Source: an uncultured bacterium
Lineage (GTDB): Bacteria; Patescibacteriota; Gracilibacteria; UBA1369; PNNO01
DNA length: 32,000 bases
NCBI GenBank assembly: GCA_963704705.1
Contig: OY969931.1
Location: forward strand, 810,001 to 842,000
Direction of reading: 5' to 3'
How positions within the stretch are numbered: the stretch's first letter is position 1; each line of letters opens with the position of its first letter. Both the position numbers and the translations under genes were made by a program. Of this stretch, positions 28,046 through 30,667 are shown piece by piece. The notes below the pieces were generated by a model. It was not told where the DNA came from. It worked only from the letters and a program-made list of their open reading frames with translations, and ran no database searches.

Positions 28046-28308
28046 GCGAAGAAATCAAAGAACTTTTAGAAAAAAACAACGCGCTATTGGAAGAACTCGT
28101 GAAATTTCAGCGAAAAGAACACCGCGCGCAGACATGGCGCTGGGTTTTGCAGTTATTAATTCAACTATTACCTTTTATAATTCTTGTACTTCTAGGTTGG
28201 TGGATGTTCAATTTGATTAACGATAACATCCATGCACTTCAGGCAAATGTTGATGCGCTCAAAGAAGGCTTTGCGAATGCGTGGGATAATGTGACATTCT
28301 GGGATTAA
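28042..28308 (+). CDS. Small single-pass membrane protein, 88 aa
   Basis: Its ATG overlaps the aroA-aroK stop (ATGA). TM segment WVLQLLIQLLPFIILVLLGWWMF flanked by helical segments. Confidence 0.55.
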   Translation: MSEEIKELLEKNNALLEELVKFQRKEHRAQTWRWVLQLLIQLLPFIILVLLGWWMFNLINDNIHALQANVDALKEGFANAWDNVTFWD

Positions 28309-28337
28309 TCGCGATACAAAAATGAATTTGCGGAAAA

Positions 28338-28389
28338 GGGGGAACGAATCGAAACGACTTGTTGTCGTTGATCGCACCCCCTTGTTCCC
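28338..28389. terminator. GC-rich compound hairpin between convergent genes (bidirectional terminator candidate)
   Basis: GGGGG (28338-28342) pairs with CCCCC (28377-28381). GGGAAC and GTTCCC give an alternative pairing. An inner AACGAC-ttgtt-GTCGTT hairpin is also present. Confidence 0.5.
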
Positions 28390-28410
28390 TTGTCTTCAGT
28401 GGTTCACCTC

Positions 28411-29250
28411 CTAGCGTTTTTCGAGCTTGCAGCTCGCGCTGCAGCCGTCGCCGTTAACCTCGTTGCCGTCGTCGCACTGCTCTCCGGTCTGCAGGATGCC
28501 GTCTCCGCAGTACTCGTGCTGGCAATAGGAATTGCAACCGTCGTTGTCCAAGTTGTTGCCGTCGTCGCACTGCTCGCCGAGGGATGCTTGAATGACGAAG
28601 TCGCCGCAAAATAAATTGCTCTCTTTGGCGAACTCTAATAGATGAATGAAATATCTATAGAGCTTCAAAACGGTCAACTTTGCATCAGAGAGCATCCATT
28701 TGCACTCCTTACAGTACTCACTGTTCTCGTCGCACTCCTCGCCCGGATCCACGACACCATTGCCGCAGAACTCCCGACGACATATGGGGGAACAGCCATC
28801 GCCTTTCTTGTCGTTGCCGTCATCGCACTCTTCGCCCGAATCCACGACACCATTGCCGCAGATTTCCCGGCGACACATGGGTGAACAGCCGTCACCAGCG
28901 AAACGATTACCATCCCAGCACTGCTCACCGTGAGAAATAAACACATCACCATCAAAGTCTTTAGACGGCCTAGGCAGGACATCATTTGGACCAGTAAGAG
29001 CGCAATATGCAGGGTTGCGCAGTTTGGGATGCTTTTTGAAAAAAGCCTCTCTCAACTCTTGATAGTTTTTTTCATCCTCCTCTTCTCTTTGTTGATTGAT
29101 CCTGTTCCTGATAGACTCCCCGAAGTTTGGGGGATCAGGCATTCCGCTTACTCTCATGCTCCATGACATGTGATCGTTAGTCATAGAGTTTCCACAGGAA
29201 ACGCTGGTGACCAACATACACACGAACAAGATATACTCAAACGTCGACAT
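28411..29250 (-). CDS. Putative lipoprotein with Myxococcus-type cysteine-rich repeats (TIGR02232/DUF4215-like); start revised to the ATG at 29250
   Basis: GGAGG lies 6 nt upstream of the ATG at 29250. Signal/lipobox-like [21 protein letters not shown]. Repeats include [30 protein letters not shown] and [30 protein letters not shown]. By eye the repeat part is much GC-richer (roughly 55-60%) than the flanks. Confidence 0.8.
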
Positions 29251-29297
29251 AATACACCTCCGGCGCATTGCGCCATCTGTTGGGTTGAACCATTAAA

Positions 29298-29324
29298 GCT
29301 GACAAGGGACAAATCCCTGTCAGC
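29298..29324 (-). promoter_or_regulatory. Strong hairpin (11 bp, 1 bulge) + TTTAAT, either in the 5' region of the lipoprotein gene or as a distal terminator of the U32 gene
   Basis: Minus strand: GCTGACAGGGA-tttg-TCCCTTGTCAGC followed by TTTAATGG. Confidence 0.45.
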
Positions 29325-29389
29325 CTTTCATACAAATATGTAAAAAGGCCGTACAGGCACTTGTTATTGCCAGCTTAATTTAAGCCAAA

Positions 29390-29443
29390 TTGACAAAGGG
29401 CATAATGAACTATATTTATATCATTTTATACCCTTTTTGTCAA
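29390..29443. promoter_or_regulatory. Inverted repeat TTGACAAAGGG / CCCTTTTTGTCAA, which places a TTGACA -35 box on each strand
   Basis: On the minus strand: TTGACA (29443..29438), N17, TATAAA (29420..29415), pointing at the lipoprotein gene. The same repeat could instead form a long-loop hairpin after the U32 gene. Confidence 0.4.
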
Positions 29444-29467
29444 GCTATCTTATAAGTACATTCGTTC

Positions 29468-30667
29468 TCATAGTTTTATTCGTATTAAAGAGTTGATTGG
29501 AACGTTTTTATCAAATTTGAATGTGCGTTCCCCTGCTCCTCCATGTGCAGAATCAAGGCTCTCACCTTTTTCATCAAAAATATCTTCAATTTTTACTTCG
29601 AATGTTTCGGTTGGAGTGAAAACTTCAACTTTATCGCCTTTTTTAATTCGATTTCGAACTTCAACAAGCCCTTTGTGATCTCTCACAACCCCGATAAATT
29701 TATGACTCTGTTTTGGTTCGTTTTTTTCATAATGGATATCTTCGTTTGTGAAAGTTCCTTTTAAAAAGCCGGGTGAATATCCACGGTTAGCTGTTTTTAG
29801 AAGTTCTGTCATTAAATTTGGATCATACGGCTGGCCCTTAACCATCGCATCAATCGCCCTTCGGTAAACATTAGTAACTGTTGATAGATAGTAGATTGAT
29901 TTGCTTCTGCCTTCAACTTTAAATCCAACAACTCCGGCATCGACAAGTTCGCGAAGATATGGAAGTGCACAAATATCGCGAGAATTAAACAAATAAGTTC
30001 CGTGCTCGTCTTCTTCAATCGGCATAAATTCACCGGGACGCTTTTCTTCTTCAAGATAAGCCGTGTATTTCCAACGGCAACTTTGTGCGCAAATTCCCTG
30101 ATTGGCATCACGATTGGTCATGTATTGTGACATAAGGCATCTTCCTGAATAAGCAACACAAATTGCACCATGAACAAATGCTTCAAGTTCCATTTCCGGT
30201 ACTTTTTCATGGATTTCTTTGATTTCGTTAAGGCTGAGCTCTCGCGGCAAAACAACTCGTTTTGCTCCAAGCTTATGCCAGAACTCAACGTCTTTATAGT
30301 TAACTGAATTCGCCTGCACAGAAATATGAATTTTCGCATCGTGATACTCCTCTTTAATCAAACTAAACACACCGGGATTCGCAACAATAAGTGCATCGGG
30401 CTTAATCTCACTTAAATATTTAATGTGCTGCCTGAACACATCAATTTTTGAATTATGAGGATAAATGTTTACTGTAACATAAACTTTTTTTCCCAGTTTA
30501 TGCGCTTTATCGATCGACTCTTTTAACTTTTCCTTATCAAATTCATTAACGCGGCTTCGCATACTAAAACCGGTTAGGCCCATATACACGACATCAGCAC
30601 CATATTCGAAAGCAAAATCCATTTTTTCCGGAGATCCCCCCGGTACGATTAATTCTGGTTTTAACAT
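29468..30667 (-). CDS. Peptidase U32 family protein (collagenase-like/RlhA-TrhP-type)
   Basis: MLKPELIVPGGSPEKMDFAFEYGADVVYMGLTGFSMRSR... and the Cys-rich ...HGAICVAYSGRCLMSQY...ANQGICAQSCRW... are hallmark U32 motifs. Confidence 0.85.
   Translation of the reverse strand: MLKPELIVPGGSPEKMDFAFEYGADVVYMGLTGFSMRSRVNEFDKEKLKESIDKAHKLGKKVYVTVNIYPHNSKIDVFRQHIKYLSEIKPDALIVANPGVFSLIKEEYHDAKIHISVQANSVNYKDVEFWHKLGAKRVVLPRELSLNEIKEIHEKVPEMELEAFVHGAICVAYSGRCLMSQYMTNRDANQGICAQSCRWKYTAYLEEEKRPGEFMPIEEDEHGTYLFNSRDICALPYLRELVDAGVVGFKVEGRSKSIYYLSTVTNVYRRAIDAMVKGQPYDPNLMTELLKTANRGYSPGFLKGTFTNEDIHYEKNEPKQSHKFIGVVRDHKGLVEVRNRIKKGDKVEVFTPTETFEVKIEDIFDEKGESLDSAHGGAGERTFKFDKNVPINSLIRIKL

Follow-up and report, generated by a model that had tools for sequence, protein, structure and literature searches.

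A cysteine-repeat gene in a Peregrinibacteria genome as the probable cargo of a family-specific expression unit

The gene and its predicted product

The subject of this analysis is a GC-rich gene for a cysteine-rich repeat protein, together with the promoter and folded leader that precede it, on the minus strand of a 32,000-nucleotide stretch of contig OY969931.1 (positions 810,001 to 842,000; this whole stretch is the window, and coordinates given without a genome name refer to it). The source genome, designated G000, is that of a marine member of the Peregrinibacteria, bacteria of the Candidate Phyla Radiation (CPR), and consists of a single contig of 1,374,545 bp with 35.5% GC and an estimated completeness of 99.4%. 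For the U32 peptidase gene at the same locus, the closest named records (71-91% identical) come from Candidatus Peregrinibacteria and Peribacteria metagenome-assembled genomes, one unclassified bacterial metagenome-assembled genome and a Patescibacteria-group single-cell genome. The features of the locus are collected in Table 1.

A previous interpretation made from the letters alone (the sequence-only reading) had described an abrupt switch in composition at this position, accompanied by overlapping spurious open reading frames (ORFs), and both descriptions were borne out. In 200-bp windows the GC content is 0.54-0.59 at 28300-28600 and 28700-28900 as compared to 0.31-0.41 in the flanks, and the spurious ORFs overlap on both strands. 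The gene as a whole has a GC content of 0.51 and a GC content at third codon positions (GC3) of 0.619, rising to 0.707 in the repeat part, against a genome mean GC3 of 0.264 (standard deviation 0.083, 1164 crude ORFs), which corresponds to a z score of 4.3, a robust z of 6.8 and rank 17. The minus-strand gene for a lipoprotein-like repeat protein that the same reading had proposed is real and intact, the whole protein scoring far above the cut-offs both for TIGR02232 (148.2 bits in five stretches, one of them shortened; cut-off 20.8) and for PF13948, also known as DUF4215 (84.7 bits; cut-off 27).

Table 1. Features of the gene and its surroundings, in window coordinates
Feature	Coordinates	Strand	Description and basis
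Putative promoter	29415..29443	-	TTGACA (29443-29438), 17-nt spacer, TATAAA (29420-29415); direct reading
Structured 5' leader, ~130-150 nt	29263..29410	-	AT-rich; 217-nt stretch 29251-29467 has GC 0.38
Long leader stem P1	29296..29376	-	basal 20 bp around a variable apex
5' hairpin	29298-29324		folding energy dG -21.7, z -4.2; the 3' half of P1 folded locally
Shine-Dalgarno site GGAGG	29257..29261	-	6 nt before ATG
ORF	28411..29268	-	longest frame; in-frame ATG at 29268 would add MRRRCI
Coding sequence	28411..29250	-	279 aa and TAG stop; GGAGG 6 nt before ATG at 29250
Predicted signal peptide with lipobox-like S-V-S-C (Cys19)	29194..29250	-	sequence reading; predicted helix at residues 3-17
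Orphan linker region	28951..29184	-	residues 23-100, charged helix predicted at 43-73; homologue search and AlphaFold model
Repeats 1-3	28708..28950	-	residues 101-181; TIGR02232 matches and translation
Repeat 1			residues 101-128; first cysteine missing
Repeat 2			residues 129-159
Repeat 3			residues 160-181; shortened
AT-rich in-frame patch, 81 bp	28627..28707	-	residues 182-208, predicted helical, in place of the end of repeat 3; GC 0.395
Repeats 4-5	28414..28626	-	residues 209-279, longer-loop type as in the giant paralogue; GC3 0.73-0.85
Conserved 3' block	28368..28415	-	stop region (TAG here, CAG in G007), then GGAGGTGAAC, then terminator 5' arm
Terminator-like hairpin, then UUUU	28332..28388	-	dG -32.9, z -3.1

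An alignment of the repeats of this gene with paralogous repeats of the genome identified C3, G4, E12, C14, D15, D16, G17, N18, D23, G24, C25 and C29 as invariant columns, and the four-cysteine spacing C-G-x-G ... E-x-C-D-D-G-N ... D-G-C-x3-C is kept in each module, repeats 1 and 3 being the exceptions. The mature part of the protein holds 21 cysteines, and 50 acidic as against 28 basic residues. Repeats 2 and 3 constitute a recent 93-bp tandem duplication whose units are 87% identical over 77 bp. In an AlphaFold model with a mean predicted local distance difference test (pLDDT) score of 71 the repeats appear as small confident modules (block-mean pLDDT ~70-92), and the AT-rich patch is modelled as a helix at residues 190-211 (block-mean pLDDT 74-81); no DNA resembling this 81-bp patch was found elsewhere in G000.

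The repeats belong to the family of Myxococcus cysteine-rich repeat proteins (TIGR02232 myxo_disulf_rpt; PF13948; IPR011936), with which they share secreted, tandem, four-cysteine modules of ~31-35 aa bearing C-D-D-G-N and G-D-G-C. The present protein differs in being short, with 4.5 modules of which one is shortened and followed by the AT-rich helical patch, and in its orphan N-terminal linker, while its gene resides in a CPR genome, is written in a GC-rich codon style and is preceded by a family-specific leader. As matches are drawn from many phyla and the repeat is native to this family of Peregrinibacteria, its name overstates the link to Myxococcus. A structural counterpart was found in human pappalysin-1 (PAPP-A) and pappalysin-2, solved by cryo-electron microscopy (e.g. 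8a7d, 8a7e, 7ufg, 8sl1), a module of which was superposed on the model by Foldseek over 31-33 residues at 52-67% identity, a root-mean-square deviation of 0.8-1.3 A and a probability of 0.97-0.99, the E-values being weak because the match is short. A direct sequence search of the full protein against solved structures gave no match, and a profile of the genome's repeats was needed to reach pappalysin-1 (E = 1e-10, residues ~865-898 of the solved chains) and pappalysin-2 (E = 4e-9). Pappalysin carries one such module within a metalloprotease of 1,500 aa, whereas here the tandem array makes up the whole functional part of a small lipoprotein, and a shared function is not implied. Twelve such repeats are carried by a diatom adhesive-trail protein (bioRxiv 10.1101/2023.03.06.531300), with which an extracellular structural or adhesive role is in line, without being proven by it.

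The N-terminus beginning at the ATG linked to the ribosome-binding site is devoid of K and R, which the upstream ATG would supply as RRR, and it ends in the lipobox-like sequence ...MLVTSVSC(19)G, of which positions -1 (S) and -2 (V) fit the pattern [LVI][ASTVI][GAS]C and position -3 is S and not L, V or I. Enzymes of lipoprotein processing are encoded in the genome, with three matches above cut-off to PF01790 (Lgt) and one to PF01252 (signal peptidase II, LspA), so that lipidation is possible. The three Lgt paralogues (G000:C1:116017-116748, 339351-340088 and 897277-898020) represent an unusual redundancy for a reduced genome and would fit a heavy investment in lipoproteins. The sequence-only reading had put forward a surface-exposed, disulfide-rich module, and the repeat protein is indeed probably anchored at the surface; the mature protein may form a rigid stalk on the cell surface, stabilised by disulfides and probably by calcium, where it could serve in adhesion or in contact with a partner.

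The conserved unit and its leader in related genomes

The U32 peptidase gene converges on a gene of 88 aa and an aroA::aroK fusion, an arrangement that is conserved throughout the family and beyond. In G000 the gap between the U32 gene and the 88-aa gene measures 1,159 bp and holds the repeat gene, as compared to 16 bp in G002, the closest relative (U32 91% identical). It shrinks to 5 bp in G003 and to 0-29 bp in four genomes at a greater distance (L059, L064-L066), and measures 76 bp in G006; in G001 it contains 233 bp of unrelated AT-rich sequence, and in two further distant genomes (L061, L068) its length is ~110-210 bp. With the site empty in most of the relatives examined, the coding sequence is lineage-specific, unique to G000 and new at this place, and to that extent the sequence-only interpretation is supported.

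G007, a 100% complete genome in 5 contigs from another genus, possesses at exactly this site the same promoter (TTGACAAA, 17 nt, TATAAATATAGTTCA) and a leader 83% identical to that of G000 over 147 nt, including a 27-nt hairpin that is 100% identical. The 15-nt block from the ribosome site to the ATG (29248-29262) is identical as well, and at the 3' end the last codons and the terminator 5' arm are 83% identical over 48 nt. As the flanking U32 gene and the 88-aa gene are only 72.6% and 68% identical in DNA, respectively, the non-coding leader is better conserved than the neighbouring housekeeping genes. The two genomes cease to be similar at the start codon and are similar again from the stop region on; between these points G007 encodes a protein of 179 aa that is unrelated to that of G000 (BLASTP E = 0.21), lacks DUF4215 and matches a MopE-like metal-binding motif only weakly (PF11617, 25.6 bits against a cut-off of 27). 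The G007 counterpart of the terminator, read by eye and not folded, has a different 3' arm followed by UUUUU. G004, of the same genus as G000, harbours at this site a more diverged promoter and leader, followed by GGAGGTG and a gene for a 36-aa peptide, with partial conservation of the 3' end; an extra AT-rich ORF of 168 aa without known family lies there between the U32 gene and the leader unit (L014:943-1449, minus strand), which indicates that the site has accepted more than one kind of insert. At a second chromosomal site, downstream of a penicillin-binding-protein gene, leader units are present in G001, G003 and G004, and the site is empty in G000.

Both junctions of the unit carry GGAGGTG. 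The conserved 3' block contains a second perfect GGAGGTGA (28399-28412 in the window; L137:2228-2250 in G007), which in G007 is followed by an ATG at the right distance and may be the relic of a lost second cargo gene (by cargo we mean the coding sequence carried behind the leader), this ATG being missing in G000. In some relatives two cargo genes do occur in tandem. The exchange of cargo may proceed by recombination at the conserved ends, and recombination between the repeated ribosome-site blocks would swap or delete the coding sequence precisely. The unit resembles replacement flexible genomic islands and variable surface loci (O-antigen, S-layer and capsule loci, or expression sites whose coding part can be exchanged, as in pilE/pilS) in its fixed position, conserved boundaries and unrelated surface-protein coding sequence. 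It is tiny, however (~0.5-1.2 kb, one gene), what is conserved is the promoter, structured leader, ribosome site and terminator belonging to the unit itself, its exchange boundaries coincide with the start and stop codons, and no silent donor copies were identified.

Transcription from the putative promoter would begin near 29408-29410. Its TTGACA, usually in the form TTGACAAA, lies upstream of all nine leader copies inspected, and the region from the -10 element to the start, TATAAATATAGTTCA, is common to G000, G004 and G007; a generic promoter scan, whose rule demands a T at position 6 of the second hexamer, did not list this promoter. The leader folds with a z of -5.65 over its whole length. 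The sequence-only reading had set the gene between two strong hairpins, and both of these are significant (Table 1), the upstream one, however, being a piece of the larger conserved leader and no boundary of an island. Support for the long stem P1 was sought among nine distinct copies, in a MAFFT alignment that had not been fitted to any structure and was analysed with RNAalifold, with slid partners as the control: 96.7% of cells are paired as compared to 32-46% with slid partners, and both-side changes occur in eight pairs as compared to 0-2. G-U pairs on the sense strand are frequent in this stem, which speaks for a function within the transcript or, at the least, on that strand. A 5' helper hairpin that would compete with the long stem is paired at 83%, with covariation not beyond the controls. 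We favour a role of the leader in mRNA stability or processing, or as the binding site of a regulator. Action of the stem as an intrinsic terminator or attenuator is unlikely, as only 2-4 U follow it and a terminator scan finds none; a conserved leader peptide was rejected, since the short ORFs of the G000 and G007 leaders differ when read by eye, as was pairing of the conserved UUCCUC of the 3' arm with the ribosome site, the registers of which do not fit across copies by eye. A separate inverted repeat at 29390-29443 (z -4.2) would fold the -35 hexamer into a hairpin by pairing it with its complement, a copy of which lies downstream; none of the other leader copies showed this repeat as such, and it is apparently peculiar to G000.

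The leader appears to be confined to the family. Rfam 15 returned nothing for 28200-29600 but a chance-level snoRNA match within the coding region (E = 0.77; 17.5 bits against 50). With a covariance model of the three syntenic copies, further copies turned up in 6 of 12 family genomes, against 0 of 138 genomes from elsewhere in the order, and a second model built from the nine distinct copies found one to three copies in 8 of 13 family genomes, just one of them in G000, and none in 148 other genomes sampled from the class. Three more copies were recovered from metagenome contigs by means of a gapped pattern. Two copies, G010:C26:47004-47142 and G001:C2:33980-34118, in bins of different genera, are identical across 45 nt upstream, the 139-nt leader and 120 nt downstream, including a cargo ORF of 43 aa; either a contig was binned twice or wrongly, or a very recent transfer took place between lineages. 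Most leader copies are followed by a GGAGG- or AAGGAG-type site, some by a weaker AAAGG, and every one by a small ORF with a membrane anchor or lipobox, which is usually GC-rich (GC3 0.49-0.91) and rich in cysteine and acidic residues. The cargo comprises lipoproteins of 63-67 aa, C-D-G-x-D-N-D-C-N-G proteins, proteins with repeated D-D-D-G-D-G-x-x-D-C, short peptides and one protein with two transmembrane segments that is rich neither in GC nor in cysteine, the gene in G000 being the only DUF4215 cargo among the leader copies seen.

A GC-rich gene class and its ribosome-binding sites

The composition of the repeat gene is not peculiar to it within its own genome. The repeat accounts for 83 matches at 13 ORFs in G000 and is found in all 12 other genomes of the family and in 4 of 4 of the genus. 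Its ORFs in G000 fall into two codon styles, eight with a GC3 of 0.13-0.34 and five with 0.71-0.81, the latter comprising the gene described here, the two ORFs of a giant gene at G000 600779-607037 and two further genes, each of ~900 aa. Amino-acid composition as a cause of the GC-richness is ruled out by the eight ORFs that encode the same repeat at low GC3, as is ordinary translational selection, since the GC3-rich set is not the ribosomal or housekeeping set. The sequence-only reading had named similarly GC-rich genes, in number in the genome or in close relatives of like composition, as grounds on which it would be refuted, and such genes were found in both: a GC3 above 0.5 is shared by 23 ORFs in G000, three ORFs of the rRNA operon excluded, of which four are the further repeat ORFs (three genes if the giant gene is counted once). 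The gene of 927 aa at G000 1320790 has orthologues in G001, G004 and G007 (two of these genomes share the genus of G000, the third belongs to a different one) with a GC3 of 0.66-0.79 at protein identities of 46-60%, indicating that the GC-rich style is old, and both codon styles are present among the repeat genes of the relatives.

The GC-rich ORFs differ from the others in a further respect, as a Shine-Dalgarno site precedes the candidate start in 13 of the 23 (57%) and in 125 of 1130 other ORFs (11%; Fisher p = 2.4e-7), the latter rate being about the background rate of the motif. The claim of a host-like promoter and ribosome-site region was upheld for the AT-rich promoter and leader, which are native to the family, and not for the GGAGG, which is atypical for this genome and characteristic of the GC-rich class. 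The 3' end of the 16S rRNA retains CCTCC, and a Peregrinibacteria genome is listed in a survey among organisms with few Shine-Dalgarno sites (PMC10783764). Although G000 has only 34 tRNA genes, tRNAs with C34 are kept for GAG (CUC), CAG (CUG), AAG (CUU) and AGG (CCU), which ordinary genes seldom use and members of the GC-rich class use often; these separate tRNAs make the GC-rich style, a second codon dialect, readable but leave its existence unexplained. The real ORFs of the class mostly begin with a signal peptide, lipobox or membrane anchor, and those with Pfam matches encode M23 peptidases, a Ser/Thr kinase, an ATPase and repeat proteins. The GC-ending codons and the ribosome site mark a native class of about 20 secreted or surface genes and not a recent foreign origin.

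Several members of this set deserve mention on their own. A Ser/Thr protein kinase (G000:C1:1309186-1311030, GC3 0.60) and a GHKL-type ATPase (406685-408724, GC3 0.70) show that the class is not purely one of surface proteins. The most extreme codon outlier (G000:C1:637398-638357, GC3 0.87) encodes a membrane-anchored protein of 318 aa with AGGAGG upstream, for which no Pfam match was obtained and no homologue was found in five relatives. At G000:C1:186675-187874 two adjacent small lipoprotein genes (GC3 0.83 and 0.66) possess lipoboxes LNGC and SNGC and ribosome sites, one of them with a weak match to bacterial TSP3 calcium repeats.

Origin of the gene and what the unit may mean

The sequence-only reading had concluded that the gene, whose repeat it described as known mainly from Myxococcota, was relatively recently acquired by horizontal transfer. 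In this account the whole gene would have come from a GC-rich donor outside the lineage, Myxococcota or similar, with its composition not yet adjusted, and it draws on the atypical GC3, on the empty site in the closest relatives and on Myxococcales, Polyangiaceae and Bdellovibrionales proteins among the named matches. A search of 5.8 billion clustered proteins gave best full-length matches of at most 50% identity, mostly restricted to the repeat part and scattered over Bdellovibrionales, Myxococcales, Polyangiaceae, Altimarinota, a gammaproteobacterial symbiont and contigs of CPR-like size. Residues 1-105 retrieved only the query itself among 1.84 billion representative proteins and chance-level matches in 150 genomes of the order, and a scan of viral contigs found no relative of the protein. 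In per-segment BLAST comparisons the repeats are 59-71% identical to those of the genome's own giant gene, 57-65% to those of sister genomes and 60-68% to the best outside matches, a similarity that indicates no direction of origin; compared as DNA, repeats 4-5 are closest to the giant gene (identity up to 79% across 154 bp; protein up to 71%). Some of the cargo, at the least, probably derives from the GC-rich repeat genes already present in the lineage. To this may be added that the GC-rich style is shared by the 23 ORFs and conserved in the orthologues of relatives, and that the switch in composition follows the boundaries of the coding sequence, the promoter, leader and terminator being native to the family. 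We consider a recent acquisition very unlikely on these grounds, and a donor among Myxococcota could not be identified. Joining of a GC-rich fragment of another organism into the contig during assembly would explain the abrupt change in composition, its single point of support, and has a negligible probability: both ends of the insert are homologous to the same site in the independently assembled G007, the 5' end also in G004, the genome is one nearly complete contig, and the switch tracks the start and stop of one ORF.

Two further accounts deal with the unit or its cargo as they stand. It is possible, though unlikely, that the whole unit is a small mobile cassette and that the leader hairpin is a single-strand DNA recombination site, attC-like or akin to a hairpin-recognising transposon end, rather than an RNA element, as presence and absence at two or more loci with clean empty sites, the one to three copies per genome and the identical copies in two bins assigned to different genera would lead one to expect. 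Against this, no recombinase or transposase adjoins any copy inspected, the covariance model finds no second copy in G000, and the hairpin sits between the conserved promoter and the ribosome site, where a transcript element would be expected. The cores RYYYAAC/GTTRRRY of attC sites are absent by eye, and an attC-like nature of the hairpins was rejected for this lack of core motifs and for the lack of similarity to other G000 loci. Integron cassettes are likewise small, contain a single gene flanked on one side by a folded element, and vary in their presence at a fixed site, but they consist of a promoterless ORF followed by attC, whereas the present unit has its own promoter, its hairpin lies 5' in the transcribed leader, and no integrase is found nearby. 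Nor does the locus conform to a genomic island: the composition is not unlike that of the same gene class in the genome and its relatives, the gene is absent from the site in close relatives though the ends of the unit are present in G004 and G007, and neither a donor lineage nor mobility genes, a tRNA or direct repeats at the borders were found, the 1,159-bp insert being too small for a recombinase and no target duplication being seen. The gene may instead be a non-functional patchwork of repeat fragments, produced by illegitimate recombination and heading for deletion, which would account for the shortened third repeat, the AT-rich patch, the 93-bp duplication and the orphan N-terminus, for a TAG stop at a position where the G007 counterpart continues for six codons, and for the mere 36-aa peptide in G004. 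We regard this as rather improbable, given that a frame of 279 aa is open in a genome that is 90% coding, that no full repeat has lost any of its four cysteines and the modelling of the repeats is confident, and that the high GC3 persists, together with an intact promoter, ribosome site, signal peptide and terminator.

The explanation that we consider probable is that this family has a native expression unit of its own for variable surface proteins, and that the gene is the cargo which the unit carries at present. Such a unit would consist of a promoter close to the consensus, a leader of ~130-150 nt that is AT-rich and would act as RNA through its long covarying stem, an extended and strong Shine-Dalgarno site, a GC-rich gene for a small, membrane-anchored protein rich in cysteine and acidic residues, and a terminator, its outer parts being conserved between genera and the coding sequence between start and stop being replaced. 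The cargo in G000 would be a lipoprotein-like protein of 279 aa with an orphan helical linker and 4.5 DUF4215/TIGR02232 modules, disulfide-knotted and probably calcium-binding. Several points weigh against this explanation. The unit is present at exactly this site in three genomes only (G000, G004 and G007), and ancestral presence followed by several clean losses is indistinguishable from site-directed insertion. One leader-linked cargo, that of G005, is not cysteine-rich and not very GC-rich either; position -3 of the lipobox is atypical; and the cargo in G000 is a mosaic, with its shortened repeat, its AT-rich patch and a TAG where G007 has CAG, that could be decaying. The persistence of the GC-rich style finds no explanation in these results, and we infer transcription from the promoter, and the integrity of the assembly, from conservation alone.

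A broader proposal, which we advance tentatively and with rather less than even confidence, is that the family possesses an expression-site system controlled by an RNA leader, in which unrelated GC-rich, cysteine- and acid-rich coding sequences are swapped exactly at the start and stop codons into a fixed socket made up of the conserved promoter, the structured leader, the extended ribosome site and the terminator. If true, this would be a form of surface variation that has not been described for CPR bacteria, and the leader would represent a new class of cis-regulatory RNA tied to a GC-rich second dialect that depends on ribosome-binding sites. For scans of CPR genomes, a sharp anomaly in GC content and codon usage, together with a patchy distribution, is by itself no sign of foreign DNA; here the anomaly marks a native class of surface genes using ribosome-binding sites that most other genes of the genome now lack. 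The life of CPR bacteria is spent attached to other cells, and to our knowledge the proteins by which they make contact are almost unknown. A short conserved leader and promoter by which small, variable, disulfide-rich surface proteins can be recognised throughout the family may provide a handle on contact with the partner, and would make it testable how the surface of these bacteria varies and why two coding dialects coexist in one tiny genome.

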